Notes: generated from the sequence alone by a model not told the origin. Shown: positions 11,390 to 48,146, counted from the first letter of the stretch. The stretch: DNA of 64,000 nt from an uncultured Eubacteriales bacterium (GCA_900319635.1 ONPF01000014.1:21009-85008), one strand, 5' to 3'. A program made the numbers and translations.

Positions 11390-12526
11390 TTATCGGATCG
11401 CCAGCAGGCGGAACACCTGCTCCACCGTATCGGCCATGTTCTTATGGGCATTCGCAGAGTCCATTGCCTCCTGCAGCGTCACGACGCCCCGCAGGATGGG
11501 GAAGAAAGCGTCGATCCCGTGCTCGTTGCAGGCCACGGCGTCCGGTGTCACACAGCCGGCAAAGGCCACCACGGGCTTCCCGTGCTTTTTGGCGATTTCG
11601 GCCACGCCGATGGGCGCCTTGCCCATGACGGTCTGTCCGTCCAGACGGCCCTCGCCGGTGATGACGATGTCGGCGTCCTTCACGAATTCCTCCAGCCGCG
11701 TCTCCTCCAGCACGATCTTGATGCCGGATTCCAGCACCGCGTTTGTAAAGCTCAGGAAAGCAAAGCCCAGGCCGCCGGCAGCGCCGGTTCCGGGCACCTT
11801 GCGGTCCGCCTTGGGGTTAATGTCCCTGGCCAGCTCCGCGTAGGCCTTCAGCCACTTGTCCATTTGCAGGATCATGGAAGGCGTTGCGCCCTTCTGGGGG
11901 CCATAGATGGCGCTGGCGCCTTTCTCCCCGCAGAGGGGATTGGTCACGTCACAAGCGACGCGAAAGGCGCAGTCCTTCAGTTCAGGCAGCACGCCCTCGG
12001 TGGTGATGCGCTTCAGTTCCTGCAGTCCCTGCGCCCCAAAGGCCACCTGTTCGCCCGCTTCATTCAGCATCCCGTAGCCCAGAGCCTGGAGCATGCCCAC
12101 ACCGCCGTCATTGGTGGCGCTTCCGCCGATACCGACGATGAAGTGGCGGCAGCCCTTCCGGATGGCGTCGCAGATCATTTCGCCCACGCCGTAGGTGGTG
12201 GTGCAGAGGGGGTTCCGCTCCCCTTCCGGCACCAGGGTGATCCCCGCCGCGGCGGACATCTCCACAATGGCGGTGACGCCGTCGGCCAAAATGCCGTACT
12301 GCGCTTCGATCTTTTTGCCCAGCGGTCCGGTCACGCTCACGGTCTGGAGCTCGCCTCCCATGCCGATGGTCAGGGCCTCCACGGTGCCCTCTCCACCGTC
12401 CGCCAGGGGGCGCACCTGCACCACCGCGTCCTTGTATACCCGCAGGATCCCGGTGCGAATGGCGTCGCCTGCTTGCAGAGAACTGAGGCTCCCCTTCAGG
12501 GAATCAATGGCAACTACTGCTTTCAT
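11390..12526 (-). CDS. glxK: Glycerate kinase
   Basis: MKAVVAIDSLKGSLSS..PLADGGEGTVEAL.. is typical of the GlxK/GarK family (378 aa). Confidence 0.9.
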   Translation of the reverse strand: MKAVVAIDSLKGSLSSLQAGDAIRTGILRVYKDAVVQVRPLADGGEGTVEALTIGMGGELQTVSVTGPLGKKIEAQYGILADGVTAIVEMSAAAGITLVPEGERNPLCTTTYGVGEMICDAIRKGCRHFIVGIGGSATNDGGVGMLQALGYGMLNEAGEQVAFGAQGLQELKRITTEGVLPELKDCAFRVACDVTNPLCGEKGASAIYGPQKGATPSMILQMDKWLKAYAELARDINPKADRKVPGTGAAGGLGFAFLSFTNAVLESGIKIVLEETRLEEFVKDADIVITGEGRLDGQTVMGKAPIGVAEIAKKHGKPVVAFAGCVTPDAVACNEHGIDAFFPILRGVVTLQEAMDSANAHKNMADTVEQVFRLLAIR

Positions 12527-12582
12527 GTCGATTGTTCCTTTCTTAACCTGATATCTGCTAGAAAACTTGGGTTCTTTTCGGC

Positions 12583-12815
12583 CAGAATTGCGTCATGCTT
12601 CCTTGAAGCCCTTGATCATATATTTCCATCAAGCTCTGCTGCTTCGCCACGCTTGGTAAAATTCTGACTTGAAATCTTATACTAATCTCTAATAGAAATC
12701 AGACAATCTTTGCGGCTGGAATTGCGCCATGCTTCGTTGCTTCCCTTGACCATATATCTCCATTATGCTCTGCGGGAAGCGCCTCGCCTGTCACAATTCT
12801 GCCTCGGAAATCTTT
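12583..12815. mobile_element. MITE-like repeat, tandem/nested copies B1 (diverged core, 12583..12678) and B2 (12679..12815)
   Basis: B2 begins with the terminal repeat atactaatctctaatagaaa. It carries the longest version of the core and is 100% identical to copy A over 62 nt and to copy C over 72 nt. B1 is a diverged core, roughly three-quarters identical by eye. Confidence 0.6.
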
Positions 12816-12899
12816 CTTGTCTTCTGTACTGCCGGGAGGGGCAAGCCCCTCCCCTACGGCGGCGACAGGGATGTACGCGTATTTTGCAGCAGGCCCAGC

Positions 12900-14114
12900 T
12901 TAAATCTGATAAGCCCACAGCGTCAGCGAGACGTAGAAAACCAGCATCCCGCCGAAGATCAGCGCCTGCTTCAGCCGGTGAGCGGTGAGCAGGCCCACAA
13001 ATTCCCGCACCGCCGCGTTGGGCCAGAAATACCACCTGGTGTCCGCCCCCATGCCCAGCGCCCGCATCTTCACCCGCCGGGCGCAAAGGCCGCCGCGAAA
13101 CACATGGTAGTTGGTGGTGGCAAAGGCCACCTTCCCTTCCGGATTGATCGCCCAGATCTTCTCCTTGGAGAACTTCATGTTCTCCATGGTATCCGTGGAG
13201 CGATCCTCCTCCACGATGCGCTCCTCCGGCACCCCCTGCTCCAGCAGGTAGCGCTTCATGGAGGCGCTCTCGGAGATGGGCTCGTCCGGCCCCCGGCCGC
13301 CGGAGGTCACAAAGATCAGATCCCTGCCGGTCTGCGCCTTCTGCTTCGCGGCAAAGTCCAGCGCCCGGTCGATCCTCCCCCGCAGCAGGGGCGAGGGCGT
13401 GCCGTCCTTGCGGATGCCGCAGCCCAGGATGATGAGGAAATCCTTATCCGGCTCCGGCTCATAGCGGGCGGCGATGCTGTCCGCCACGATGGCACCGATG
13501 AGCATGCATTCAAAATAGAGATAGACCGCGGCGAAGAGGTTTGCAAAGAGATCGTGGACCATGACCTCCTCCCGGCTGCCGGAGGCATAGCGGTCAAAGA
13601 AGAACAAAAACAGCACCCCGCCCACCAGCAGAAAAGAGAGGATGATCCCCAGCACGTTTACGAGCCGCTTCCCCTCGTGCCGGATCAGCGAGATATTGGA
13701 GACGCAGAGCGCCGCGGAGAAGCACAGCAGGAAGGGCGCGGACAGGAGGATATAGTTCTTGGCCGAACCCAGCAGAATGTGCAGAACCGACTCCAACCGA
13801 TACTCCAGCGGAAGGCGGATCAGCTGCACGGTGAGGTAGATCTGCATGATCAGCACCGACAGCAGGAACAGGGCAAAGCCCATGTAATAGATCGTGTTGT
13901 AGGAGTAGGGGTTATACTGCAGCTGCTTGAACCAGGCTGCCACCAGCTGGATCAGCGCCGCCAGCAGATAGACCGCGATCAGCACGCTGATGGGCACCGC
14001 GTATTGTTCCGCCCCGCCGTGGATCAGCAGGAACAGAATGACCCCGACGAAAAGCGCCTGGATCAGCAGGTTATAGAGCTTGGGCTTTTTGTTTCGGGTA
14101 TCGAATTTCAGCAA
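12900..14114 (-). CDS. Multi-pass membrane protein with C-terminal DUF218 (YdcF/SanA/ElyC-like) domain
   Basis: Hydrophobic N-terminal half, then FLIILGCGIRKDGTPSPLLRGRIDRAL..FVTSGG..SESASMKRYL. It overlaps the upstream gene by 7 nt. Confidence 0.75.
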   Translation of the reverse strand: MLKFDTRNKKPKLYNLLIQALFVGVILFLLIHGGAEQYAVPISVLIAVYLLAALIQLVAAWFKQLQYNPYSYNTIYYMGFALFLLSVLIMQIYLTVQLIRLPLEYRLESVLHILLGSAKNYILLSAPFLLCFSAALCVSNISLIRHEGKRLVNVLGIILSFLLVGGVLFLFFFDRYASGSREEVMVHDLFANLFAAVYLYFECMLIGAIVADSIAARYEPEPDKDFLIILGCGIRKDGTPSPLLRGRIDRALDFAAKQKAQTGRDLIFVTSGGRGPDEPISESASMKRYLLEQGVPEERIVEEDRSTDTMENMKFSKEKIWAINPEGKVAFATTNYHVFRGGLCARRVKMRALGMGADTRWYFWPNAAVREFVGLLTAHRLKQALIFGGMLVFYVSLTLWAYQI

Positions 14115-14980
14115 GGCTGTTCCTTTCTCACCTGGTCCAGAAAACGCCGGAGGCCCTCCGGCCCCTCGGCTGCGTCCTCCAGACCCGTGTCGCCCAGGGC
14201 GATCATCTTGTTCTTTCCGTGGTAGTCGCTCCCCGCCGTGACATAAAGCCCGTAGCGCTGGGCGAAGTCCAGCATCTCCCGGTTGAGCTTTCCCGTGAAG
14301 CCGGAATAGTAGGCCTCCACGCCCTGCAGCCCCCGCTCCATCAGCCAGCGGAGCCGCTGATCCATCTCCTCGCCCAGGATGAGCTGATCTCCGTCTCCGT
14401 AGGAGGGGTGCGCCAGCACCGGGATGCCTCCGGCGCCCAGGATGCCGGCGATGGCCTGCTCCGGGCGGAGAAAATCGCTGCGGATGTGGAGCTGGTTGAT
14501 ATACTCCTTGATGGCCTGCTCCTTCGAGCGGGCATAGCCGTACTTGACCATCAGGTTCCCGATATGGGGCTTGCCGGGGTTATCCTGGGCCATGAGCCAG
14601 CGCAGCTCCTCCTCGGGAAAAGAGACGCCGAAGCGCTCCCGCAGGAAATCCAGCCTGGCGCGCAGCTTCCGCATGCGCATCCCGTGGCCGGTCTCCACCA
14701 GCTGCCGGATGGACTCCGCCCGGGGATCGTAGCCGTAGCCCAGGATATGGTACTTCCCCTTTTCGTCCCGGCAGGAAAACTCCGCCCCCGGGAGGAAGGC
14801 GGGGTCCCCCTCCCGCAGCAGCTCCAGCATGGTCACGCAGCCCTTGATGGCGTCGTGATCGGTGAGGGCAAAGAGCTGGAGCCCGACCTCCTTGACCCGG
14901 TCCAGGAGCTGGGCCGGACTGTCGCTTCCGTCGGAAACGCTGCTGTGCATATGAAGATCGATCTTGTGCGGAATTCTCAT
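14108..14980 (-). CDS. PHP-domain metal-dependent phosphoesterase (TrpH/YciV-like)
   Basis: IDLHMHSSVSDGS, ALTDHD, AHP, SDYHG motifs; 290 aa. Confidence 0.85.
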   Translation of the reverse strand: MRIPHKIDLHMHSSVSDGSDSPAQLLDRVKEVGLQLFALTDHDAIKGCVTMLELLREGDPAFLPGAEFSCRDEKGKYHILGYGYDPRAESIRQLVETGHGMRMRKLRARLDFLRERFGVSFPEEELRWLMAQDNPGKPHIGNLMVKYGYARSKEQAIKEYINQLHIRSDFLRPEQAIAGILGAGGIPVLAHPSYGDGDQLILGEEMDQRLRWLMERGLQGVEAYYSGFTGKLNREMLDFAQRYGLYVTAGSDYHGKNKMIALGDTGLEDAAEGPEGLRRFLDQVRKEQPC

Positions 14981-14983
14981 CTG

Positions 14984-16540
14984 TTATCCCAATTTCTTCT
15001 TCAGCGTCAGAATATTCTGGCCGCCTCTGTATTCATAGCTCACGTCGTCCATGAGCTTTTTGGTCAAAAACACGCCCAGGCCGCCGATCTGCCGCTTCTC
15101 CGCAGGCAGCTTGGTATTGGGATCGGCCTTGGCCAGCGGATCGTAGGGGACGCCGTGATCCAGGAAGGTGATCGTCACGGTGACAGGCTCCTCGGAGACC
15201 TCCACACGGATCTTGGTCTTCCCCGTCTCCGGCGCGTAGGCATAGCTGGCGATGTTCACGAAGATCTCCTCCACCGCCACGCCGATCTGCATCTCCGCCC
15301 TGGCGGGGCAGTCCGCCGCCTCCAGATGCTCCTCCACAAAGGACTGCAGCTCCTGCAGATTCTCCGGCACGGCGTCCAGCTCCAGCTCATTGGCGTTGAA
15401 GAGCAGGGTGTCCGTCTCCGCCAGCAGCTCCAGCAGACTTGCTTTCCAATGCTCCACATCCGCCCGGCGCTCCGGATCCTCCAGTCCGTAACGGCGGATG
15501 GTGCGGCGGATCAGGCGGGTGTAGCCGACGATCCGCGCCTTATTCTCCACCTCGCGGATCTTGGTCTCGCTGCTGGTGCCCAGGTAGGCCGCCAGCGCCT
15601 TGTGGAAGAAGGTCGCGCCGATTTCATAATCGAAGCCCTGGAATTTTTTGATGACCTCGTGATCCCGCTCCGAGAAGCCGATAAAGGAGTTGTACATGCT
15701 GCCCAGCTCGAAGATCGGGTGCCCCACCGCCAGGGTGTCCATGTCGATGAGCAGCACCTCGTCGTTCTGGAGCTCCAGATTCCTGGTGTGGTAATCCCCA
15801 TGGATCATGTGATCGTCATGGGGAACCTCCCGGATCATGGCGAGCAGCTTCTCCCCCGCCTCCTCCGGCAGATAGTCCTTGGTAAAGTTCGCCCAATTCA
15901 GCGCCGTCTCCTTCATATCCGGCAGCTTTCCGGCGGGGACCAGGGTGCCGTGGATCTTCTTGAGCATGCCCACGAATTCCTTGACGCACCAGTCCATCTT
16001 CTCCGGCTCTCTGGCCAGGATCTTGGCGAAGGAGCGGGCGTTGAGCAGTTCAAACACCGAGCCGTAGCTGTCCCCCACCTTCACGACATCATAGGAGATG
16101 GCCGTGGGAATGCCCAGGATCAGCGCCATCTTTGCCATTTCCCGCTCGTGCTGAATATCCTGCAGCGCGTCGGCGTTCTTATAGACCTTCACCACGTTGT
16201 CCTGGTCGATGCGGTAGAGCTTGCCGTTGGCGCCGCGGCCGATCTCCTCGCAGCCCTCGATGGACACCACGCGGTAGGCCTTCTCCACGGTCATCATCTC
16301 GGTGAAGCCGGTCATGTCCAGGATCTCGTAGACCTCGGGGCTGACATTGACGATGCGCATGGCGGGGTTGGTTTTCCGAATGCGCAGCAGCACCCGCAGC
16401 CCGGCGCTGGAAATGTATTCCAGTTCAGCCGCGTCCAGCACGAGGGAAGTCTTGTCCCCCTGTTCTATCTGCTTCAAAACGCTCTGCTCCACGGCGGAGG
16501 CGTTGTTGGAATCAATTCTTCCGTTCAGCTTGATCGTCAT
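14984..16540 (-). CDS. Triple-domain fusion: STAS (anti-sigma antagonist) + APH/choline-kinase-like kinase + RsbW/SpoIIAB-like GHKL serine kinase
   Basis: aa 1-95: STAS with LEYISSAGLRVLL. aa ~100-370: IGRGANGKLY, VVKVYK, HGDYHTRN (HxDxxxxN), LIDMD. aa ~385-518: EEIFVNIASYA (N-box), DHGVPYDP, IGGLGVFL. Confidence 0.85.
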   Translation of the reverse strand: MTIKLNGRIDSNNASAVEQSVLKQIEQGDKTSLVLDAAELEYISSAGLRVLLRIRKTNPAMRIVNVSPEVYEILDMTGFTEMMTVEKAYRVVSIEGCEEIGRGANGKLYRIDQDNVVKVYKNADALQDIQHEREMAKMALILGIPTAISYDVVKVGDSYGSVFELLNARSFAKILAREPEKMDWCVKEFVGMLKKIHGTLVPAGKLPDMKETALNWANFTKDYLPEEAGEKLLAMIREVPHDDHMIHGDYHTRNLELQNDEVLLIDMDTLAVGHPIFELGSMYNSFIGFSERDHEVIKKFQGFDYEIGATFFHKALAAYLGTSSETKIREVENKARIVGYTRLIRRTIRRYGLEDPERRADVEHWKASLLELLAETDTLLFNANELELDAVPENLQELQSFVEEHLEAADCPARAEMQIGVAVEEIFVNIASYAYAPETGKTKIRVEVSEEPVTVTITFLDHGVPYDPLAKADPNTKLPAEKRQIGGLGVFLTKKLMDDVSYEYRGGQNILTLKKKLG

Positions 16541-18347
16541 TCTTGCTCATTCCCTTTCCCCGGTATTCCATGCACAGCATGGTAAGGTCGTCAAATTGTT
16601 CTGCGTCCTTCACAAAGTCGGTTACCGCCGCGCTCACATTCTGCAAAATGTGCGCCGGCGCGGCCTCCGGCTCCGTATTCAGGGCCCTCAGCATCCGCTC
16701 CATCCCGAACATCCGCTCCTCGGCATTTGTCGCCTCGGGCACCCCGTCGGTGTAGAGGAAAAGCTTCGCGCCGGGCTCCAGCGTCAGCTCATACTCCCGG
16801 TATTTTGCCGAATCCATGACGCCGATGACCAGGCCGTGCTTGTCCTTCAGCAGCTCGAAGCTGCCGTCCGGCCGCTTGAGTACCGGGTACTCGTGCCCGG
16901 CGTTGGCCGCCGTGAGACGGCCTGTGGAAATCTCCAGGATCCCCAGCCAGACGGTGACAAACATCTCCTCCTGGTTGTTGGAGCAGATGGCTTCGTTGGT
17001 TTTGGCCAGCGTCTCCGCCGCGGAGCGGCCCAGCATGGCGCAGCTCTGCAGGATGATCTTGCAGACCATCATGAAGAGCGCAGCGGGCACGCCCTTTCCG
17101 GACACATCCGCCATCACCAGGCAGAGATGATCCTCGTCGATGAGATAATAGTCGTAGAAATCGCCGCCCACTTCCCTGGCCGGATCCATGCTGGCATAGA
17201 GTTCAAATTCCTGCCTGTCCGGGAAGGGCGGGAAATCATGGGGCAGGAAGGCCGCCTGCAGCCGCGTCGCCAGGGCGAGCTCCGTGGTGATCCGCTCCCG
17301 CTCCGCGGTGATGGACTCCATCCGGCCCATGTACTGGTCAAGCTCTCTCGTCAGCTTGACCACATCCTCCGAGAGCTCTCCGATCTCGTTGCGGGATCGG
17401 ATCTCCCTCAGATTCTCCGCCACGCCCGCGCTGTCCTTGCTGCGCTCGTACAGGCGGATGCTGTTCTGGATCTTCTTCAGCGGACGCAGCACGAAAAGCG
17501 ACATCAGCCCCAGGCAGATCAGCGACAGGATCACCTGGAAGATCAGGGCCGAAAGGGTCTCTTGCCAGGTCTGCCTGTCAATATCCGCCCGCAGCTCCGA
17601 GAGGCTCGAGGTCAGACCGATGAGCACAGGACGCCCGTCGATCTCACACAGATAGGCGTAATAATCCACATAATCGCCGGCGTCGGCCAGATGGCTTGCC
17701 TTCCGGCAGGCGCTGCCCATGGCCTCATGCTGGCTCTCCCCCAGATCCCGCACCACATGGCCGAGGGGGTAGACCTCCTCATAATCCGTTCCCCGCACGG
17801 CGCCTGGATCCGCGGCGCTGAAGAGGAAGAACTGGGTATCATAGGGCTCCCCGGTCACCACGCAGAAGAGATAGTCCACCTTGTGGGTCTGCTTGATGGT
17901 ATCGACGCGGGTGATCAGCCAGGAGTAACAGATCTCGGCATAGAGCTTCTGATCCTCCTCCGAGAGGGCCTCGATCTGCTCCTCTTCCATGTATCGCAGC
18001 TGAAGTCCCGGGTTCCGCCGGTGTAAGCTGCGGTACTTTGCCTCGGTCTCCGTCTCGCCGCTGAAATCCACGTCGTATTCCACATCCATGCTGTCCCAGT
18101 GCTCAAGCCAATAGCGCAGAAGCCACCGGTAACCCGGATACTCCCGCACGGCAAGGGAAACCTCGTTGGCGATTTCCGCAGAATGATTCTCCGCCTGCTG
18201 CTTGACGCTCTGATTGGCACGCAGGTGCTGGGTCACAAAGGTGATGATCCCCGACGCCACAATGGCGAGGGCAAACAGGATCGCGACCTGCAGGATGATG
18301 CTGCCTTTTCTTTTCTCCCCGCTCATGTCCGAAAACCTCTTCTGCAC
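16512..18347 (-). CDS. Membrane sensor PP2C phosphatase (TM - extracytoplasmic domain - TM - HAMP-like - SpoIIE/RsbU-type PP2C)
   Basis: Two hydrophobic segments flank a domain of about 220 aa. C-terminal motifs: REVGGDFYDY, VMADVSGKGVPAALFM, LYTDGVPEA, DDLTMLC. Confidence 0.9.
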   Translation of the reverse strand: MQKRFSDMSGEKRKGSIILQVAILFALAIVASGIITFVTQHLRANQSVKQQAENHSAEIANEVSLAVREYPGYRWLLRYWLEHWDSMDVEYDVDFSGETETEAKYRSLHRRNPGLQLRYMEEEQIEALSEEDQKLYAEICYSWLITRVDTIKQTHKVDYLFCVVTGEPYDTQFFLFSAADPGAVRGTDYEEVYPLGHVVRDLGESQHEAMGSACRKASHLADAGDYVDYYAYLCEIDGRPVLIGLTSSLSELRADIDRQTWQETLSALIFQVILSLICLGLMSLFVLRPLKKIQNSIRLYERSKDSAGVAENLREIRSRNEIGELSEDVVKLTRELDQYMGRMESITAERERITTELALATRLQAAFLPHDFPPFPDRQEFELYASMDPAREVGGDFYDYYLIDEDHLCLVMADVSGKGVPAALFMMVCKIILQSCAMLGRSAAETLAKTNEAICSNNQEEMFVTVWLGILEISTGRLTAANAGHEYPVLKRPDGSFELLKDKHGLVIGVMDSAKYREYELTLEPGAKLFLYTDGVPEATNAEERMFGMERMLRALNTEPEAAPAHILQNVSAAVTDFVKDAEQFDDLTMLCMEYRGKGMSKNDDQAERKN

Positions 18348-18383
18348 GCAGGCTGCCGCATAAGTCTCTGGCTCTACGCGGGA

Positions 18384-18683
18384 TTATTCGATATTCAGAA
18401 TATCGCAGAAGCCGGTCACTTCAAAGATCTCCTTGACTGTCTCGTTCACATGGACGAGCTTCATCTCGCCCTGCCGATTCATGATCTTCTGGGCGGCGAG
18501 CAGTACGCGCAGTCCGGCGGAGGAGATATACTCCAGCCGCTCAAAATCCAGGGTCAGCGCCTTCACATCTGCAAGGGATCCCTGCAATTCCTTCTCCAGC
18601 TGCGGCGCCGTGACCGTGTCCAGCCGTCCCTCCAGCGCCAGGCAGAGCTCTTCCTTTTCCTTCGTTTTGTTGATGGTCAGCAT
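18384..18683 (-). CDS. Anti-sigma-factor antagonist (single-domain STAS protein, 99 aa)
   Basis: MLTINKT..LEGRLDTVTAPQLEKEL..LEYISSAGLRVLL. The ATG at 18683 is preceded by GGAGG. Only the last 99 codons of track ORF 18384..19094 are used. Confidence 0.9.
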   Translation of the reverse strand: MLTINKTKEKEELCLALEGRLDTVTAPQLEKELQGSLADVKALTLDFERLEYISSAGLRVLLAAQKIMNRQGEMKLVHVNETVKEIFEVTGFCDILNIE

Positions 18684-18834
18684 ATGTTTTTCCTCCACAC
18701 AAGTTATTTTCCTGTCACGCTCCGCCCGCCGGCGAAAGCTTCTCCCCGGTGTCGGCGCGCAGGGGCGCCGGCCAGGAGGAACCCGTAACGGACGTAAAAA
18801 GCATCCTCTGTTTTTTGCTATGGGCATTTTGTAT

Positions 18835-18863
18835 ATTATAACGCAGCAATGGGAAAATGTCAG
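18835..18863 (-). promoter_or_regulatory. Sigma-A-type promoter for the partner-switching operon
   Basis: Minus strand CTGACA-17nt-TATAAT. It predicts a leader of about 145 nt. Confidence 0.5.
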
Positions 18864-19092
18864 CAAAAAATCGTGTCTCTTCCGACATTTTTTTGATCCC
18901 CCGCCGCCCCGGAAAGCTCCTGTTCCTTTGCGCGCTGCTCCGGGCGCTTCGCACCCCGGGCTTTGCCCCGGCGTTTGGCAGCTTCTCTTTCCCCGCATTG
19001 GGGATTGCCAGTCCGGGACCACAGGAGTAGAATAGGGAAAAATGCGCGCCTCCCATATGCGGATGCCGGGAAGGCGCGAAGGAGGCATTTGC

Positions 19093-19674
19093 ATGCATAT
19101 CTGTGTTTACGGAGCGTCCGGGAGTCAACTGGATCGGGCATATTTCGACGCAGCCCGCGCTCTCGGGCGGCTGCTGGCCGGGAGCGGGCATACGCTGGTC
19201 TTCGGCGGCGGCGCCGGCGGGCTGATGGGCGCCTGCGCCGAGGGCGCCGCCGAAAGAAACGGCGACATTTACGGCATCGCCCCGCGCTTTTTCGACGAGC
19301 CGGGCATCCTCTTCCCCCGCTGCAGTCGCTTTCTCTTCACGGAGACCATGGCGGAGCGGAAGAGCGCCATGGAGGAGGCCAGCGAGGCCTTCATTGCCCT
19401 GCCCGGCGGCATCGGCACCTTTGAGGAGTTTTTCGAGACCCTGACCCTCAAGCAGCTGGGGCGGCACGGAAAGCCCATAGCGCTGCTGAACACTCTGGAC
19501 TACTACGCGCCTCTGGTGGACATGCTGGAGCGGGCGGCGGAGGGCGGCTTTCTCAGCCGAAGCTGTCTGGAGCTTTTCGCTCTCTGCGCCACACCGGAGG
19601 AGGCGCTGCGGCATGTTTGTACCGCCCCGGAGCGCACCGGCAGCATCCGGAGGCTCACGGATTACAACAAATAG
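19093..19674 (+). CDS. LOG-family (TIGR00730-type) nucleotide phosphoribohydrolase
   Basis: VYGAS.., GGGAGGLMG, PGGIGTFEE motifs. The ATG at 19093 lies 7 nt after GGAGG. Confidence 0.85.
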   Translation: MHICVYGASGSQLDRAYFDAARALGRLLAGSGHTLVFGGGAGGLMGACAEGAAERNGDIYGIAPRFFDEPGILFPRCSRFLFTETMAERKSAMEEASEAFIALPGGIGTFEEFFETLTLKQLGRHGKPIALLNTLDYYAPLVDMLERAAEGGFLSRSCLELFALCATPEEALRHVCTAPERTGSIRRLTDYNK

Positions 19675-19731
19675 CCGGTTCTCCGGAAAAGCCACCCAAA
19701 GGCCTTTCTCAAAAATGTATTTGGGGGAGTT

Positions 19732-19756
19732 CAGAGGGGAACACCCCTCTGTTTTT
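19732..19756 (+). terminator. Intrinsic terminator after the LOG gene
   Basis: cagagggg-aaca-cccctctg followed by ttttt. Confidence 0.8.
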
Positions 19757-19925
19757 CGCCTCGCAAGGCGAAAAACAAATCAAATTGTTTTTTCCGGGGG
19801 CGTGTACCTCGGAAAAAACTCTTCTCAGCCTGCAAGTGTGCGAGCGTCCCCCGCAAGCAAGTGCGCGCAGCAGGCTGCAAGCTCCTTTCGTTTCGCATAA
19901 ATGCCCTCAGGCATTTTTGTGAAAC
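19752..19925. repeat. Run of further hairpins (A/T-clamped stems)
   Basis: tttttcgcc..ggcgaaaaa (19752..19775), ttttttccg..cggaaaaaa (19788..19818), cagcctgc..gcaggctg (19827..19876) and gtttcgcataaatgcc..ggcatttttgtgaaac (19890..19925). Confidence 0.6.
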
Positions 19926-19951
19926 GACCGTGAAAAACTTCCCTCCCGCTC

Positions 19952-19980
19952 TTGCATTCATGTGTTGGATTTGATAGAAT
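19952..19980 (+). promoter_or_regulatory. Putative promoter of recJ-relA-dtd cluster
   Basis: TTGCAT-17nt-TAGAAT. Confidence 0.4.
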
Positions 19981-20012
19981 AATGTGATGAGAAAAAGATA
20001 AAGTGGGAAGTT

Positions 20013-22037
20013 ATGAATACATTAGGATGGAAAATACCCTATACGCGGCCGGAATACCCGGCTGCTCTGAAACAGGCGGGCTTCGGGCCGCTTCTTTCTG
20101 CTGTCCTCGCCCTGCGCGGGATCCGGACGGCGGAGGCGGCGCAGGCCCTGCTGGAGAGCGGGATCGACTGTCTGCATGACCCCATGCGGATGCAGGGCAT
20201 GCCCGCCGCGGTGGAGCGCATCCGCCGGGCCATCGGGCAGAAGGAGGCCGTCGCCGTCTACGGAGACTATGACGTGGACGGCATCACCGCCACCTGTCTG
20301 CTCACGGACTACCTGCGGGGAAAGGGGCTGCGCTGTGTCGGCTATATCCCCGACCGAAACGAGGAGGGCTACGGGCTCAACTGCGCCGCGCTGGACAGTC
20401 TGCGCGCCGACGGCGTGACATTGCTCATTACGGTAGACTGCGGCATCACCGCGGTGGAAGAGGCGGAGTACACCAAGCGCATCGGCATGGACATGATCGT
20501 CACCGATCACCACGAGTGCAAGCCCGGCGCCCTGCCGGACGCGCTGGCCGTCATCGACTGCAAGCAGGAGGGCAACCGCTATCCCAACCCGGATCTCTGC
20601 GGCGTGGGCGTGGCGCTGAAGCTGGTCTGCGCCTGCGAGGGGAATGCCGCCGCCATGCTGGAGCGCTATGCGGATCTGGTGGCCGTGGGCACGGTTGCGG
20701 ACGTGATGCCCCTGGTGGGGGAAAACCGCTTTCTGGTGCGGCAGGGGCTGGAAAAGCTGGTGCACAATCCCCGTCCCGGCTTTGCCGCCATGCTGCGGGA
20801 GGCCGGGGTGGATCCGGAACGGATCACCGCCTCCAGCATCGGCTTCAGTCTGGCGCCCCGCCTGAACGCCGCGGGCCGTCTGGGGCAGGCCACCCGGGCA
20901 GCGGAGCTGCTGATGGCCACCGAGCCCGACAAGGCCGCCGCCCTGGCCGCCGAGCTCTGCGAACTGAACCGCCAGCGGCAGAGCATCGAGACCGAGATCT
21001 GGAAGGACGCTCTGCATCAATTGGAGGGTCGTCATCCCGACGAGCCCATCGTCCTGGCCAGCGATCGCTGGCACCAGGGGGTCATCGGCATCGCCGCCTC
21101 CCGCCTGGCGGAGCAGTTTTCGCTGCCCGCCATCATGGTCTGTCTCAACGGCGACCACGGCAAGGGCTCCTGCCGCAGCTACGGCGGCTTTAATCTCTTT
21201 GAGGCGCTCTCCGCCTGCTCCCGGCATCTGCTGGGCTTCGGCGGGCACGCGCTGGCCGCCGGCATGACCATCAGCCGCGACAAGCTCAATGATTTTCGCG
21301 CGGCTCTCGCCGCGTATTATCGCGCCAACCGCCCCAAGCCGGTGCCGGATGTGAACTGCGACCTGCTGATCCGGGATCCCTCTCTGCTCACGCTGGAGAA
21401 CGTGCGGGAGCTGGATCGGCTGGAGCCCTTCGGCAACGCCAATCCCAAGCCCGTGTTCTGCTTCAGCGACGCGCTGCTGGAATCCGCCGACCAGGTGGGC
21501 GGCGGCAGGCATCTGAAGGTGCGCGTCAGCCTCGGCGGGGCGCGGCTGGACGGGATCTTCTTTTCCCACAGCGCCCAGGCGCTGGGCGTTGCGGCGGGCG
21601 ATCGGGTGGATCTGGCCTTTACCCCCCAGATCAATGAATTCCGCGGACACGCCAGCGTACAGCTGGTGATCTCCGCCCTGCGCCGCCACGACGGTACTGC
21701 GCTCTGCCGCAAGATTTTGGCGGGCGAGGGCAATACCGCTTATGCCGCCGCGGCCTTCTGTCCCCAGCGGGCGGACTTCGTGCGCATCTGGCGCGGCGCC
21801 GGCGGGAGGCTCTCTCTGCCGGAGGACGCGGAGGGCATTCTCTCCCTCTGCCCCAAGGACATGGAGCCGGAGCGCTTCTGCCTTTGCCTGATGATCCTGC
21901 AGGAGGCGGGACTGCTGCACAGCGCGGACGGGCGCATCTTCGGCGCCTGCTGCTGTGCCACCGAGGGGAAGGCGGATCTGAACGCCACGCCCCTCATGCA
22001 GAGCCTCCAGCTGGAGCTGGAGGGAGACCACAGCTGA
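20013..22037 (+). CDS. recJ: Single-stranded-DNA-specific exonuclease RecJ
   Basis: DHH motifs (VYGDYDVDGITA, ITVDCG, VTDHH), a DHHA1 region (GGHALAAG) and typical length. Confidence 0.9.
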   Translation: MNTLGWKIPYTRPEYPAALKQAGFGPLLSAVLALRGIRTAEAAQALLESGIDCLHDPMRMQGMPAAVERIRRAIGQKEAVAVYGDYDVDGITATCLLTDYLRGKGLRCVGYIPDRNEEGYGLNCAALDSLRADGVTLLITVDCGITAVEEAEYTKRIGMDMIVTDHHECKPGALPDALAVIDCKQEGNRYPNPDLCGVGVALKLVCACEGNAAAMLERYADLVAVGTVADVMPLVGENRFLVRQGLEKLVHNPRPGFAAMLREAGVDPERITASSIGFSLAPRLNAAGRLGQATRAAELLMATEPDKAAALAAELCELNRQRQSIETEIWKDALHQLEGRHPDEPIVLASDRWHQGVIGIAASRLAEQFSLPAIMVCLNGDHGKGSCRSYGGFNLFEALSACSRHLLGFGGHALAAGMTISRDKLNDFRAALAAYYRANRPKPVPDVNCDLLIRDPSLLTLENVRELDRLEPFGNANPKPVFCFSDALLESADQVGGGRHLKVRVSLGGARLDGIFFSHSAQALGVAAGDRVDLAFTPQINEFRGHASVQLVISALRRHDGTALCRKILAGEGNTAYAAAAFCPQRADFVRIWRGAGGRLSLPEDAEGILSLCPKDMEPERFCLCLMILQEAGLLHSADGRIFGACCCATEGKADLNATPLMQSLQLELEGDHS

Positions 22038-43404: not shown

Positions 43405-44190
43405 ATGGTGTCGCCTCCGGCGACGGATTGAGATTCGGGGAGCGTGGGGGAAACGTTCGTTCGCTCCGTAGGGGCGACCCTTGTGGTCGCCCGTTTCCCC
43501 CGTAGGGCCGAGCATTGCTCGGCCGCTTGTCGGACACGGGCGCAGGTCGGCGGGCGATTCGTGAATCGCCCCTACGGGGGAACCTCCGTCCGCGCCGTAG
43601 GGGCGGGTAATACCCGCCCGCTTGTCCGTTCGCTGCGTAGGGGCCGGCGCCCTCGACGGCCCGTTTGTCGGACATGGGCGCAGGTCGCGGACACGGCTTT
43701 GTGCTTCCCCCAGCGGGGGAAGCTCCCGCGTAGCGGGTGATGAGGGAGAAGCCTGCCGCAGCGGTTGAGATGGTCTATAAGGGAAGCCTCTCCCTCATCC
43801 GTCAGCCGCCTTCCGTGAGACGGCGGCCGCCACCTTCCCCCGCTGGGGGAAGGACTGAGGCGGGCCGCTTGTCGGACGCCGGCGCATGTCGGCGGAGCGA
43901 TTCGGCTATCGCCCCTACGGGGAACCCCTTCCTTCAGCGGCGGGCGTTACACGCCGCTGACACCTCCGCCTTGCGGTGCCCGAAAAACGCTGCGCACATT
44001 CGTTTGCTTGTGTTTTTCGACCGCTGCGGAAATTCCGGCTTCGCTTCATCTGCCACTGGCAGCGCGAAGCCGCAATTCCCCCGGAGGGGGAGGCAAGGCG
44101 CACTGGCCTTGCAATAACACGGGGTTTTGGGTTTATCTGCATATTGACAGCTCCCGCAGCCGAGAGGCGGCGGGAGCTGCTTTTTTTACT
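43405..44190. repeat. Hairpin forest: about 20 consecutive GC-rich stem-loops with internal ~62-nt repeat units
   Basis: Example stems: 43472..43492, 43506..43524, 43553..43570, 43601..43619, 43703..43723, 43739..43799, 43833..43853, 43934..43960, 43981..44019, 44093..44112, 44148..44187. The units 43523..43584 and 43865..43926 are related. Confidence 0.75.
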
Positions 44191-45274
44191 TCTTTACAAA
44201 GGTGACAGTTCCCACAGACTCCTTGTCCCAGTCGAGGAAGGTAACGGTGAGGGTGTCGCCCGCTTCTCCCTGTCCCTGGCTGTACGCAGCGAAGAAGCTG
44301 CCGTCCTCCCGAAGTCCCAGGCCGCCATTGCCATGAAACTCCATCCCCTCCACGCGCAGGGTCATGAAATCTGCCTCGGCAAAGTCGTCGGTGGGCACTC
44401 CCGTGAGACGCAGGCTGATCCCGAGGGGCGTCCGTTCCAGCCGAAGCTCGCCCAGCTCCAGTCCGGGTATTGCCTTCGGATCCTCCGGCGCATAGACGCC
44501 GAGGAGTGTACCCACTCCCTCCGACATGGTGAGGGGGATCTCCAGACGCTGGATAGCCGCCGGATCATATTCCAGATTCAGATTGCCCGGCTCGACAATT
44601 TGCGCGTTGATCTGGCAGACTGTCTCGATCACCGGAGCGGAAACACTCTTGGTTGCCTCCAGATACAGCACCATCTCTCTGTCAGAGAGATACACCGCAT
44701 GCTGTCCAAAACTTTCAACGCCCAAGTTCTCCCACGGGAGACTCGCCCCCACAAAGAGGAGCTTGCGCTCCTGCCCGAGGGCATATTCCTCCAGTGTGCC
44801 TTCTCCTTCAAGCCCGATGCTCTGCAGCTCAGTGAAGGGATCCTCACTGCTGTCAGCCAGGACATAGCCCTCGTCCGCCGTGACGCTCAGGGTCAGCAGA
44901 ATGGTGTTCTCATCACAGTAGCTCTCGGTTATCCGCGCCTGGAAGCCCTCGCCCTCGGCTGTTTCCTGCCGGGTCTCGATCACCGCCTGCGCCTCCTGGG
45001 GCATCTCACCACGGTTGGGGTTTGCGTACAGCTCCCGAAGACCGAACAGGTTCAGCGCGTAGGCCGTCGCCGCCAGCGCCAGCACGAGACAGGCCGCGAG
45101 AGCCAGGGCGATCCCTCGACGTACCATGACAGGGTGGTTTTCCAAATGATTCTTCTTCATTTTCTTGTTCCTTTCCGGGATCCGGCTTCGCTCAGCAGCC
45201 CGGAACTCCATCGCCTCCGCGATCAGCTCCTCGTCGATTCCGGTCAGGGCATTGGATACCAGCTTGCGATTCAT
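44186..45274 (-). CDS. Putative single-pass anti-sigma factor with large extracytoplasmic domain
   Basis: Its start shares an ATGA overlap with the ECF sigma gene's stop. It has one TM segment (IALALAACLVLALAATAYAL). No family was recognised for the C-terminal ~270 aa. Confidence 0.65.
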   Translation of the reverse strand: MNRKLVSNALTGIDEELIAEAMEFRAAERSRIPERNKKMKKNHLENHPVMVRRGIALALAACLVLALAATAYALNLFGLRELYANPNRGEMPQEAQAVIETRQETAEGEGFQARITESYCDENTILLTLSVTADEGYVLADSSEDPFTELQSIGLEGEGTLEEYALGQERKLLFVGASLPWENLGVESFGQHAVYLSDREMVLYLEATKSVSAPVIETVCQINAQIVEPGNLNLEYDPAAIQRLEIPLTMSEGVGTLLGVYAPEDPKAIPGLELGELRLERTPLGISLRLTGVPTDDFAEADFMTLRVEGMEFHGNGGLGLREDGSFFAAYSQGQGEAGDTLTVTFLDWDKESVGTVTFVKK

Positions 45275-45861
45275 GCCATCATCCCCTCCTTTTTCAAATA
45301 ATCCTGCAAACGTTGGCGCAAGCGGAAAAGACGCACAGACAGGGCGTGGGGCTTTCTCCCCGTGGCAGACGCGATCTCGGAGATGGAGTCCCCAAACCAA
45401 TAGCGGCGCAGGAACAGCACCCGATCATCAGGCTCCAAGCTGCGGAGAAATTGGTTTACATAACCCGTCAATTCTCTTGCCTCGTACTCGGTCTCCACAT
45501 TGGAGAGCGCCGGCACGGTCTCCTCCAGCTCGTCCAGCGCCACGTCATAAAAGGTGTTGCGCTTTTTTGCGCTGTTGGAGCGATAGCGGTTGATGGCCAG
45601 ATTCCGGGCGATTTTGCAAGCGTAGGCGCCCAGGTGTTCCGGCTGCCCGGGCGGAATGCTGTTCCAGACCTGCAGGCAGGTGTCGCTGGCGCACTCTTCC
45701 GCATCCTGCCGATCCCGCAGAACATGGTCGGTCACCTGGCGGATCTGTCTGCCGTATTTTCGATTCAGTTCCTCGATCGCCTCTTCCGAGCGTTGCCGGA
45801 ACAGGGCGACGATCTCTTGATCTTTCAAAACTGTACCTTCTTTCCCCGGGAAGTGATGCAT
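45271..45861 (-). CDS. ECF-type RNA polymerase sigma-70 family factor
   Basis: Region 2 (DAEECASDTCLQVW..YACKIARNLAINRYR) and region 4 (ISEIASATGRKPHALSVRLFRLRQRL). Confidence 0.85.
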   Translation of the reverse strand: MHHFPGKEGTVLKDQEIVALFRQRSEEAIEELNRKYGRQIRQVTDHVLRDRQDAEECASDTCLQVWNSIPPGQPEHLGAYACKIARNLAINRYRSNSAKKRNTFYDVALDELEETVPALSNVETEYEARELTGYVNQFLRSLEPDDRVLFLRRYWFGDSISEIASATGRKPHALSVRLFRLRQRLQDYLKKEGMMA

Positions 45862-46079: not shown

Positions 46080-48146
46080 TTACGCCTCGGTCTCGCCCTC
46101 GGGGGCGATGCCGGTGGCGGTGCCGTCGGCAGAGACCTCATAGACCAGAGCGTCCTCGCGGGCCTCTTCCTTCTCCTCCTCCACGGGAGCCTTCTCCACG
46201 GGGGCGGGCTCGCTCAGCGCGCGGATGGACAGGGAGATCTTGTGCTTCTCCTGGTCGATGGCGGTGATCTTGGCGTCCACCACGTCGCCCACGGTCAGCA
46301 CGTCACCGGGCTTGCCGATGCGGCGGTTGGCGATCTGGCTGATGTGGATCAGGCCGTCCACGCCGGGCAGAACTTCCGCAAAGGCGCCGAAGTCCATGAG
46401 CTTGACGATGGTGACGGGGGCAATGTCGCCCACCTGGTACTTGTTGGTGAACTGGGTCCAGGGGTTGCCGTTGGGATCCTTGTAGCCCAGGGAGATCTTG
46501 CGCTTCTCCCGGTCGAAGTTGATGACGTAGACCTCGATCTCGTCGCCCACGGAGACGACCTCGGAGGGCTGGTGGATGCGGCCCCAGCTCAGCTCGGAGA
46601 CGTGCACCATGCCGTCGATGCCGCCGATGTCCACGAAGGCGCCGTAGCTGGTCAGAGACTTGACCACGCCCTTGTAGTGCTTGCCGATCTCGATGTTGTT
46701 CCAGATGGCCTCGGTGCGCTCGCGGCGCTCGGCCTGGGCCACGCGGCGGATGGAGCCCACCACGCGCTTGCGGGCCTTGTTGACCTCGGTGATCTTGAGA
46801 CGCACGGTCTTCTTCAGCAGCTGGCTCATCTCAGCATCGCGGGGCAGGTCGGTCTGGGAAGCGGGCACGAACACGCGCACGCCCTTGACAGAGACGACCA
46901 CGCCGCCCTTGTTCTCCTCGGTGACAACGCCTTCCATCACGGTGCCGTCTTCCACGGCGGCCTCGACCTCGTTCCAGATCTTGGCGGCGTCCAGACGCTT
47001 CTTGGACAGGGTGACAACGCCGTCCACATCGTTCACGCGAACCACAACGGCCTCCAGGGTGTCGCCGACCTTGACGGCGTCTTCCAGCTTGGTGCCGTCC
47101 TCGGTGAACTCCTCGGTGGGGATGATGCCGGTCTGCTTGGTGCCGAGATCCACGCTGATCTCGGTGCCGGTGATCGCCACGACGGTGCCGCTGACCTTAT
47201 CTCCATTATAGATAGGCTTGAGGCTCTCCTCCAGCATTTCGTCGAAGGTCATTTCCTTCTCAACTGCGGGCTCCTCTACCTTGATTTCTTCATTTTTGAT
47301 TTCGTCCATTTTGTTTCTTACCTCCTTAATGATCCACGCGGGGGTGGACGCTCCGGCCGTCAGCCCGACGGTATCAGCGCTCCTGAGCCTGTCCAGCTCC
47401 AACTCCGCCGGACCTTCGATGAACTGGACATGGGCGCAGTGCTCGCCGCAGATCTGGGCGAGATGGACGCTGTTTGCGCTGTGCCTGCCGCCGATGACGA
47501 CCATCGCATCGCACGAAGCGGCAATTTTCGCCGCCTCTTCCTGCCGCGTAAACGTAGCAAGGCATATTGTATCATGGATTTTCGCATTTGTACATCTTTT
47601 TTTTAGGATTTCGCAACATTCGGTAAAATTACTGCGCGTCTGGGTGGTTTGCACCACGACAGTTATCGGTTTCTCCAAAAGATCCGGGTTTTCTTCCAGA
47701 AAAAGGCTGGTTTCCGCCGGATTTTCCAGCACCCGATGCTCTTTGCACCAGCCGCAGATGGCCTCCACCTCCGGGTGACGGCGCATGCCGATGATGAGCA
47801 CGAAGCGCCCCTCCCGGGCGGCGCGGGAGACGATGGTGTGGATGGCCTTGACCTTGGGGCAGGTGGCGTCGGTGACCTGGGCGCCGGCCTTCTCCAGGGC
47901 GGCATAGACCTCCGGCGCGGCCCCGTGGGCGCGGATCAGCACCGCCTCCCCCGGCCGCAGCTCCTCCGGTGTATTCACCACGCGCATGCCCTTTGCCTCC
48001 AGGGCGCGCACCACGTCCTCGTTGTGGATGAGCTGCCCCAGGCTTGCGCAGTGTCCCTTCTCCCGTATGAGCCCCTCGGCCAGCTCCACGGAGCGCTGCA
48101 CCCCGAAGCAGAAGCCCGCGCTCTCGGCTACGATCAGCTCTCTCAC
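46080..48146 (-). CDS. ispH: Bifunctional 4-hydroxy-3-methylbut-2-enyl diphosphate reductase / ribosomal protein S1 fusion
   Basis: N-terminal IspH (GFCFGVQRSV, HNEDVV, three Cys ligands), then four S1 OB-fold repeats (..G.V..L..FGAFV..G..GL.H.S..). Confidence 0.9.
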   Translation of the reverse strand: MRELIVAESAGFCFGVQRSVELAEGLIREKGHCASLGQLIHNEDVVRALEAKGMRVVNTPEELRPGEAVLIRAHGAAPEVYAALEKAGAQVTDATCPKVKAIHTIVSRAAREGRFVLIIGMRRHPEVEAICGWCKEHRVLENPAETSLFLEENPDLLEKPITVVVQTTQTRSNFTECCEILKKRCTNAKIHDTICLATFTRQEEAAKIAASCDAMVVIGGRHSANSVHLAQICGEHCAHVQFIEGPAELELDRLRSADTVGLTAGASTPAWIIKEVRNKMDEIKNEEIKVEEPAVEKEMTFDEMLEESLKPIYNGDKVSGTVVAITGTEISVDLGTKQTGIIPTEEFTEDGTKLEDAVKVGDTLEAVVVRVNDVDGVVTLSKKRLDAAKIWNEVEAAVEDGTVMEGVVTEENKGGVVVSVKGVRVFVPASQTDLPRDAEMSQLLKKTVRLKITEVNKARKRVVGSIRRVAQAERRERTEAIWNNIEIGKHYKGVVKSLTSYGAFVDIGGIDGMVHVSELSWGRIHQPSEVVSVGDEIEVYVINFDREKRKISLGYKDPNGNPWTQFTNKYQVGDIAPVTIVKLMDFGAFAEVLPGVDGLIHISQIANRRIGKPGDVLTVGDVVDAKITAIDQEKHKISLSIRALSEPAPVEKAPVEEEKEEAREDALVYEVSADGTATGIAPEGETEA

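Follow-up and report, generated by a model that had tools for sequence, protein, structure and literature searches.

We analyzed a stretch of 64,000 nucleotides (nt) from an uncultured Eubacteriales bacterium (GCA_900319635.1 ONPF01000014.1:21009-85008; hereafter the window, with positions counted from its first letter), which carries a run of five minus-strand genes resembling a partner-switching module whose regulated effector may be a built-in kinase rather than a sigma factor. In reading order, these genes encode a free STAS protein of 99 amino acids (aa; 18384-18683), a membrane PP2C phosphatase of 604 aa (16512-18326 from an ATG, or 611 aa from an alternative GTG at 18347), a 518-aa fusion of STAS, APH and GHKL domains (14984-16540), a 290-aa PHP phosphoesterase (14108-14980), and a 404-aa DUF218 protein with a TTG start (12900-14114). 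An earlier, sequence-only reading of the window had described five packed genes separated by a 36-nt gap, a 29-nt overlap, a 3-nt gap, and a 7-nt overlap, behind one good sigma-A-type promoter. These spacings follow from the coordinates of the open reading frames (ORFs) when the GTG is taken as the PP2C start, and the ORF positions stand; however, the PP2C gene more likely starts at ATG 18326, because a GAGG lies 9 nt upstream of it, public gene calls (locus L001) support it, and homologues begin with MxxxEKRK, so that the first gap becomes 57 nt.

The promoter-like site held up as described: the sigma-70/SigA-type sequence CTGACA-17-TATAAT (18835..18863, minus strand), with 11/12 consensus matches, is the best consensus match in 12000-20200, a region whose shuffles yield 2.5 +/- 1.7 sites at ≥9/12. 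Assuming that transcription starts just past the -10 box, the 5' leader would span ~145 nt (18684..18828, minus strand). This leader had no Rfam match, either at the gathering score or even at E<=1, and its fold was not better than that of shuffles (z = -0.5). In the minimum-free-energy fold as well as the centroid fold, a leader CCUCC is paired to the GGAGG that serves STAS as its ribosome-binding site, a pairing that is not significant. On the blank Rfam result at E<=1 and the fold z-score of -0.5, we rejected a riboswitch or structured leader. At the other end, ~50 nt past the DUF218 stop codon, a GC-rich hairpin of 8 bp with a CTTG loop, GGGAGGGG-CTTG-CCCCTCCC, can be read from the sequence (12834..12853, minus strand); it has no U tract and was missed by a consensus terminator scan, and it may mark the end of the transcript. 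The rest of the window holds no further STAS, GHKL, PP2C, APH, PHP, or DUF218 gene outside the five-gene set.

All domain calls of the earlier reading passed profile search, with every Pfam match above the gathering score. The free STAS protein is RsbV/SpoIIAA-like (Pfam STAS, 9e-17; TIGR00377, 5.8e-21, above cutoff), and its predicted phospho-acceptor, Ser55, lies within LEYISSAGLRVLL (YISSAGL). The STAS domain of the fusion (aa 1-90; 16271..16540, minus strand; Pfam STAS, 5e-15) is 39% identical to the free protein, and the 13-residue acceptor stretch LEYISSAGLRVLL is the same in both. Its predicted acceptor, Ser45, aligns in the 1auz alignment with the first Ser of the DSSG of SpoIIAA, which, by our count on the B. 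subtilis SpoIIAA sequence, is the phospho-acceptor Ser58. The acceptor motif is retained in 106/114 free STAS genes and 166/168 fused STAS domains from related loci. Among 38 diverse three- and two-domain relatives of the fusion (33-80% identity to the window protein), S45, G47, L48, and T77 are invariant or ≥90% conserved, Ser45 itself being invariant.

Adjoining this STAS domain is an APH/choline-kinase-like kinase domain (aa 93-384; 15389..16264, minus strand; Pfam APH, 2e-13), which we propose as the output of the module. It scored 51 bits vs. a Pfam cutoff of 23, while its 107.1 bits against TIGR02172 (1e-30) fall below the cutoff of 228.2, i.e., the domain is related to that family without being a member. 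The catalytic residues G101, G103, G106, K118, E132, H247, D249, N254, D266, and D268 are invariant or ≥90% conserved in the same 38 relatives, and the C-terminal lobe has a conserved Arg-rich helix. The short segment after D266xD268 appears to be a trait of small-molecule kinases, standing in place of a protein-kinase activation loop, as far as can be read from the sequence. A sequence search of the PDB with the APH domain returned no match; structural comparison with Foldseek retrieved APH(2''), APH(3'), Cph, methylthioribose (MTR) kinase, and APH(9) at a target-normalized TM-score (TMt) of 0.4-0.6 and 12-19% identity, with a probability of 1.0 for APH(2''), APH(3'), and MTR kinase.

The remainder of the fusion is an RsbW/SpoIIAB-like GHKL Ser kinase domain (aa 385-518, with the stop codon at 14984..15388, minus strand; HATPase_c_2, 6e-25), which matched RsbW profiles (1.6e-9) and, in the PDB, RsbW (6m36). 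Its N, G1, and G2 boxes are intact in 115/117 members of the fusion family. The AlphaFold2 (AF2) model of the whole fusion is compact, with a mean predicted local distance difference test score (pLDDT) of 88 and a predicted TM-score (pTM) of 0.81. Public records name proteins of this type “anti-sigma factor antagonist”, a label that is misleading.

The phosphatase matched Pfam SpoIIE (4e-52) and is laid out as a first transmembrane (TM) segment, an outside domain, a second TM segment, a HAMP-like segment, a coiled coil, and the PP2C domain. The two TM segments predicted from hydropathy (aa 10-28 and 261-279) enclose an extracytoplasmic sensor domain of ~230 aa (aa 29-260; 17547..18242, minus strand) and are followed by RPL...NEIGEL. 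The catalytic domain of SpoIIE type (aa 397-590; 16557..17138, minus strand) is supported by Pfam, by conserved Asp residues, and by Foldseek. Of the two-TM sensor, HAMP-like segment, and SpoIIE-type PP2C proposed by the sequence-only reading, the TM segments and the phosphatase were borne out, but profiles support the HAMP-like segment only weakly: the region after the second TM segment had no Pfam HAMP match at E<=0.01 and only partial NCBIfam matches to SiaA and to an ArsS-type kinase, next to the RPL...NEIGEL motif and helices in the AF2 model. The model of the protein (pLDDT 79) had its best Foldseek matches in the PP2C of SiaA (6k4e, TMt 0.85), RssB, the RsbU domain of Rv1364c (3ke6), RsbX, and SpoIIE, all of them to the PP2C domain and none to the sensor domain. 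The metal-ligand residues D389, D407, D527, and D579/580 are invariant in 27 PP2C homologues. By its secondary structure in the AF2 model, where a five-strand alpha/beta unit comes after a long helix, the sensor domain may be Cache/PDC-like. It is shared by 11 of the 88 PP2C proteins linked to the module, and the input domain therefore varies.

The PHP protein is a phosphoesterase of the TrpH/YciV type (Pfam PHP, 3e-9). Its nearest NCBIfam models are 3',5'-nucleoside bisphosphate phosphatase (NF041577; 3.5e-33, 115 vs. a cutoff of 400) and RNase RNM-AM (NF047791; 101 vs. 375); with scores this far below the equivalog cutoffs, its substrate need not match those of Cv1693 or RNase AM. It matched 3e0f, 2yb1, 9etk, and 7ug9 in the PDB. 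Of these, 2yb1 (“amidohydrolase” in its deposition) is presumably the 3',5'-nucleotide bisphosphate phosphatase Cv1693, whereas 7ug9 (“5'-3' exoribonuclease”) is presumably RNase AM/YciV of E. coli. The trinuclear-site ligands H10, H12, D17, H42, E67, H78, H191, D252, and H254 are ≥97% conserved in 74 module-linked copies, as are R102, K105, K137, and H139. The last protein of the run matched Pfam DUF218 over aa 225-374 (2e-25; 90 bits vs. a cutoff of 27.6) and had no PDB match by sequence. Hydropathy predicts seven TM segments in it, six N-terminal and one C-terminal, unlike SanA, which is a single-TM protein.

We then considered whether these genes keep company elsewhere. The fusion has >8000 relatives in databases, the best 120 of which are 73-99% identical and have the same three domains, and a scan of one genome per species found a close relative of it encoded in 496 species-level genomes. 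From these, 80 genomes were kept, almost all of them rumen or gut metagenome-assembled genomes (MAGs) labelled Oscillospiraceae, Ruminococcaceae, Lachnospiraceae, or Clostridia; the five window proteins were mapped on their loci by tblastn, and partners were counted on 48 non-redundant loci with ≥4 kb on each side. In these well-flanked loci, the free STAS gene was found 42 times, PHP 37 times, and PP2C 35 times, so that each of these three has a share of 73-88%, and every partner found lay on the same strand as the fusion gene. DUF218 was less frequent (18/48, 38%), and the complete five-gene set occurred in 11 loci. The co-travel of PHP and DUF218 with the fusion, which the sequence-only reading had put forward for survey, was therefore observed for both genes, at these different rates. 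Of the 62 loci with enough downstream sequence, 34 have a PHP gene that begins within 100 nt of where the fusion gene ends, and DUF218 lies directly 3' of PHP in 13 loci. Over ~175 related loci, the module is kept on one strand, with a gene order that varies: STAS-PP2C-fusion-PHP is commonest, next to PP2C-fusion-STAS-PHP, STAS-fusion-PHP-DUF218, and others, which argues for selection on the set and not for shared ancestry of one arrangement. Judged from gene content, the core of the module is STAS, PP2C, fusion, and PHP, with DUF218 as an accessory. Between MAGs that bear the labels Oscillospiraceae, Lachnospiraceae, Ruminococcaceae, and, in one case, Spirochaetales, the fusion shows 68-80% identity, a level across family labels that suggests lateral spread.

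No sigma factor was part of this company. Sigma factors were sought among all ORFs using SigF, SigA, and SigB sequences, an ECF (extracytoplasmic function) profile, and jackhmmer. The SigF probe was validated on the PDB, where it retrieved 1l0o_C at 8.5e-128 and also SigA, RpoD, RpoS, FliA, and SigB. Sensitivity to ECF factors was limited: single-sequence probes missed the ECF gene of the window itself, and a profile including that gene was used instead. The one sigma-like ORF of the window is, as noted earlier from the sequence, this ECF-type gene (45271-45861, minus strand), which lies ~26 kb away and seems to have no relation to the operon. It overlaps the start of a gene for a 404-aa protein with one hydrophobic segment (44186-45400, minus strand), a probable anti-sigma factor. 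Across 173 related loci (1.9 Mb), no sigma factor was found in the gene run, and the finding of a regular sigma factor in homologous operons, which would have spoken against the sequence-only reading, was not made. Four sigma-like ORFs lay 2-5 kb away, namely a group-3-like sigma on the opposite strand 5 kb from the module (L140) and three ECF-like ORFs, each 2-4 kb from it (L115, L129, and L172). These four double as positive controls within the locus data, and we judge them, on a rough estimate of our own, to be no more than background: at typical sigma-gene frequencies, ≥10 sigma genes would be expected among the ~2400 genes covered.

The domains of the fusion are themselves recombined in a wider family. 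A profile-free search of 1.84 billion representatives gave 17,369 matches, with 808 clusters (50% identity) below E 1e-30, and the STAS-APH clusters came mostly from rumen and gut Clostridia. Most of the best 150 relatives are ~390 aa long and cover query residues 1-381, i.e., they are STAS-APH proteins without GHKL, and at the 50% identity level there are few proteins with all three domains. We collected 80 metagenome loci seeded on two-domain STAS-APH genes and mapped their domains with jackhmmer profiles. Two-domain genes adjoin a free 98-aa STAS gene together with a free GHKL gene of RsbW size (133-204 aa; L128, L134, L140, L141, L148, L151, L158, L165, L166, and L169) or a gene for a PP2C-GHKL fusion protein (L088, L101, L102, L105, L107, L123, L162, and L171), and they are sometimes accompanied by PHP (L122 and L168). 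The sensor-PP2C of the type found in the window also occurs with a C-terminal HATPase_c_2 domain, in proteins of 733-744 aa (P0335, P0340, and P0343), and a permuted GHKL-STAS-APH protein (P0155) is encoded on several contigs, followed by a free STAS gene. Across the family, the predicted GHKL domain is free, attached to PP2C, or placed at either end of STAS-APH, and STAS-APH is the constant unit. This relocation around a constant STAS-APH is domain-fusion evidence of the classical kind that GHKL, PP2C, and STAS act on each other, and it points to the APH kinase as the part they serve. Rare relatives join STAS-APH to HD_4, HD-CE, or PolyA_pol nucleotidyltransferase domains. An apparent STAS-APH-PHP Rosetta-stone fusion (P0157) was given little weight, as it was seen just once, on a 3-kb contig, and could be a read-through or assembly artefact.

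Several further genes were seen around the module in related loci. In or beside STAS/PP2C/fusion clusters, 16 loci encode MatE transporters of ~590 aa with a C-terminal HATPase_c_2 domain (e.g., L048:3249-5021; also L010, L026, L042, L053, L054, L056, L066, L071, and others). The G1 and G2 ATP-lid boxes are lost in 20/21 of these transporter-linked GHKL domains, which may have lost catalysis and serve as STAS-docking handles on the transporters. In some loci, a sodium:dicarboxylate symporter (SDF) gene with an extra N-terminal domain of ~140 aa stands between PP2C and the fusion gene (L028:6295-7941; also L012, L034, L013, and L022), and one relative (P0248) joins a Na+/H+ exchanger to STAS-APH. 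A conserved protein of ~195 aa without a Pfam match is encoded beside the free STAS gene in most of its 9 loci (L038:8484-9071; also L019, L023, L043, L053, L060, L061, and L011); its identification as a degenerate GHKL domain was unsupported (hhalign probability 3%). The MAG Tb.RUG.214 has a fusion gene on each of two contigs (L025 and L067), and some genomes may thus contain paralogous copies, while L052, L055, and L076 each have two PP2C genes. In one Ruminococcaceae lineage, a gene for a large serine recombinase and three small genes of helix-turn-helix (HTH) type lie 2-5 kb upstream of the module (L003:3616-6525 and L004:967-3876), a region that may be the border of a mobile element.

From the computed domain identities, the intact catalytic and acceptor residues, the gene linkage, the shuffling of the GHKL domain, and the lack of sigma genes, we infer binding and phosphotransfer steps, a sign of regulation, and a kind of substrate. 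Specifically, we favor, with a probability of about 0.55, a sigma-independent partner-switching module whose regulated effector is the built-in APH-type small-molecule kinase. In such a module, the variable extracytoplasmic domain and the HAMP-like linker would let the membrane PP2C read a signal from outside, which would set its phosphatase activity. The GHKL domain of the fusion would bind and phosphorylate Ser55 of the free STAS protein and/or Ser45 of its own STAS domain, and PP2C would strip the phosphates from these serines. Competition for the GHKL domain between free unphosphorylated STAS and the in-cis STAS domain, plus the state of Ser45, would switch the APH kinase on or off. The kinase would then phosphorylate a hydroxyl of a small, probably anionic, metabolite, and the translationally coupled PHP protein would hydrolyze the same or the next phospho-compound, with the polytopic DUF218 protein as an optional membrane accessory. 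The sequence-only reading had likewise considered a non-transcriptional output likely, with APH, PHP, and DUF218 as candidates; the lack of a co-travelling sigma factor agrees with this, and the comparative data now single out the APH kinase among the three, since STAS-APH is the part that stays the same throughout the family.

Several points weigh against this interpretation. For every member of the family, it rests on sequence and predicted structure. The assignment of the five genes to one operon is based on their spacing and one promoter-like site only. The APH fold match is, as modeled, a generic one (TMt 0.4-0.6) that gives no substrate, and the model of the fusion does not establish a contact between its STAS and GHKL domains in cis. 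PP2C is absent near about a quarter of the three-domain loci. Among the 16 well-flanked two-domain loci, 7 are without a neighboring gene for a kinase, phosphatase, or STAS protein, and the APH kinase can therefore exist without a nearby switch. Finally, a sigma factor or another target elsewhere in the genome is possible, as only 64 kb of it are visible.

A more specific version of the favored reading, which we hold only tentatively and think rather doubtful, is that the kinase and PHP pair makes and destroys a phosphorylated small molecule, perhaps a nucleotide-derived signal, under the control of a receptor in gut and rumen Clostridia. This suggestion comes from the PHP branch, which hydrolyzes 3',5'-bisphosphonucleotides and 5'-phosphorylated RNA ends, from the fusions of STAS-APH to HD_4, HD-CE, and PolyA_pol domains, and from the Arg-rich helix in the APH C-terminal lobe. 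If true, partner switching would here set the level of a metabolite or second messenger and not the state of a protein target.

Alternatively, the free STAS protein could be the output, as for SypA or RbaV: when unphosphorylated, it would leave the GHKL domain and act on, e.g., a transporter, while the APH domain would serve for input or for sensing ATP. STAS is the output of some known non-canonical systems (PMC8256260), and the MatE transporters with a box-less HATPase_c_2 domain (16 loci; 20/21 domains), as well as the SDF proteins with an extra N-terminal domain, look in related clusters as if they bore inactive docking handles for STAS. However, no such transporter and no second GHKL-like gene is present in the 64-kb window. 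The APH domain has the same catalytic residues in all of the family, as expected of an enzyme and not of a sensor, and STAS-APH is constant while the free STAS is sometimes absent. We regard this explanation as possible but unlikely.

The two remaining functional alternatives appear to us improbable, and about equally so. The operon could be a conventional anti-sigma system that controls transcription, its GHKL domain sequestering a sigma factor encoded elsewhere. The domain does match both RsbW and SpoIIAB profiles, the public annotation is “anti-sigma factor antagonist”, and such a sigma gene could lie outside the 64 kb visible; yet no sigma gene was found in or beside the module in 173 loci and 1.9 Mb, and the fusion of GHKL to STAS-APH, at either end, or to PP2C ties it to these partners instead. 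The operon could also be an inducible drug- or toxin-modifying resistance cassette, in which the APH domain phosphorylates an antibiotic sensed by PP2C while transporters and the SanA-like DUF218 protein handle the compound or envelope damage. Aminoglycoside and capreomycin phosphotransferases are indeed the best structural matches, a VanX-like M15 D-Ala-D-Ala dipeptidase and MatE efflux proteins are encoded close to some relatives, and the 68-80% identity of the fusion across family labels can be read as lateral spread. Nevertheless, the structural match is at the level of the fold only (12-19% identity), and a tightly coupled phosphoesterase would reverse the resistance modification. The STAS-APH part had no homologue on 72,556 plasmids, four plasmid records matching through the GHKL domain alone, and PADLOC returned no defence-model match for any of the five proteins. 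Distribution over ~500 species-level genomes in a chromosomal housekeeping context is also unlike that of a typical resistance gene. The same blank PADLOC result led us to set aside an anti-phage defence system. That the five genes are mere neighbors without a common function, which the occurrence of all five in just 11/48 loci might suggest, is highly improbable given the same-strand linkage of STAS, PP2C, and PHP (73-88%) despite reshuffled order, start and stop codons that overlap or nearly abut, and independent domain fusions among the partners.

Other features of the window were noted in passing. Divergent from the operon, at 19005-22037 (plus strand) and beyond, are a LOG-family (Lysine_decarbox/LDcluster4) gene, recJ, relA/spoT, dtd, and a gene of the metallo-beta-lactamase fold, with a TTGCCA-17-TAGAAT site at 19005-19033. 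This nucleotide-metabolism neighborhood was not kept in the other loci whose annotated surroundings were examined. A link to pyrimidine metabolism was also rejected: three two-domain loci adjoin pyr/upp genes, but no systematic association was seen in 177 loci. Antisense to the fusion and PHP genes, and longer than either, a 788-aa ORF (14219-16585, plus strand) is a typical spurious long ORF of a window of ~60% GC and not a gene. Further away, a 688-aa ORF (46080-48146, minus strand) seems, by eye from its translation, to combine an IspH/LytB-like N-terminal part with repeated S1-like RNA-binding motifs.

Compared to known switches, the module shares with RsbU/RsbV/RsbW-SigB and SpoIIE/SpoIIAA/SpoIIAB-SigF of Bacillus a single-domain STAS protein whose acceptor Ser precedes a Gly by two residues, a HATPase_c_2 Ser kinase with N, G1, and G2 boxes, and a PP2C of the SpoIIE/RsbU class. 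Unlike in these systems, there is no sigma gene in the gene run at any of the 173 loci surveyed with the sigma probes, the kinase is fused to a second STAS domain and an APH domain, and the phosphatase is a two-TM receptor. By its domains, the module contains the three RsbV, RsbW, and RsbU components, but it lacks the sigma factor that would be encoded with them as a fourth. The HenR/All4160/Alr3423 system of Anabaena comes closest in its logic: an RsbW-type kinase and the PP2C HenR set the phosphorylation of the STAS domain that a glycosyltransferase carries, and this regulates the enzyme directly, without transcription (PMC13555669, 2026). In both cases an enzyme is joined to a STAS domain, here STAS aa 1-90 and APH aa 93-384 with the acceptor Ser retained, and the Anabaena system sets a precedent for the control of such a fusion by a PP2C and a kinase of the RsbW type. 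The differences are that the enzyme there is a glycosyltransferase whose kinase is separate and encoded elsewhere, whereas here an APH kinase comes with a fused GHKL domain, a second, free STAS protein, and a coupled PHP protein.

In SiaABCD of Pseudomonas aeruginosa, which includes the membrane HAMP-PP2C SiaA, a kinase/phosphatase pair acting on a small switch protein controls an enzyme (PMC7647112). SiaA is the best structural match of the window PP2C (6k4e) and a partial NCBIfam match, with an equivalog score of 57 vs. a cutoff of 700; the output there is, in contrast, a diguanylate cyclase, to which SiaC binds. SiaB is not known to be classed as a HATPase_c_2 protein, nor SiaC as a STAS protein. 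Sigma-independent partner switching is also represented by SypE-SypA (Vibrio fischeri), BtrUVW (Bordetella), and RbaVWY (Rhodobacter) (PMC8256260, PMC10120452). SypE joins an RsbW-like kinase and PP2C, as do the PP2C-GHKL proteins beside two-domain STAS-APH genes; none of these three systems has an APH-type kinase or PHP, however, and their outputs, where known, concern secretion or biofilm. Rv1364c of Mycobacterium tuberculosis, whose RsbU domain (3ke6) matches the window PP2C, has PP2C, GHKL kinase, and STAS in one chain but no APH domain, and it is linked to SigF regulation.

For its part, the APH domain shares with the APH/choline-kinase/MTR-kinase family (PF01636) the fold, the Gly-rich loop, Lys118, Glu132, H247xD249xxxxN254, and D266xD268, although it is just 12-19% identical to solved members, and we know of no characterized APH-type member with flanking STAS and GHKL domains. 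The PHP protein shares its metal ligands with Cv1693 (2yb1) and RNase AM (7ug9) at low overall identity (phmmer E-values 2e-31 to 5e-12), and its basic residues align with phosphate-binding positions of Cv1693. Full-text literature searches found nothing on the STAS-APH-GHKL family.

Partner switching is usually taught as a route to a free sigma factor. Switches that lack one are already known, as is an enzyme output (PMC8256260, PMC13555669, PMC7647112), and the module described here is thus no new category. What sets it apart are the APH-fold effector, the fusion of GHKL to that effector, the second, free STAS protein, and the coupled PHP protein. The STAS-APH family would add a large uncharacterized set to the few switches that control enzymes, and the relocation of the GHKL domain, be it free, on the phosphatase, or at either end of the effector, is a clear natural example of circuit rewiring. 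Discovery of the substrate would correct the widespread “anti-sigma factor antagonist” misannotation and might bring to light a new metabolite or signal that is under regulation in dominant gut anaerobes.

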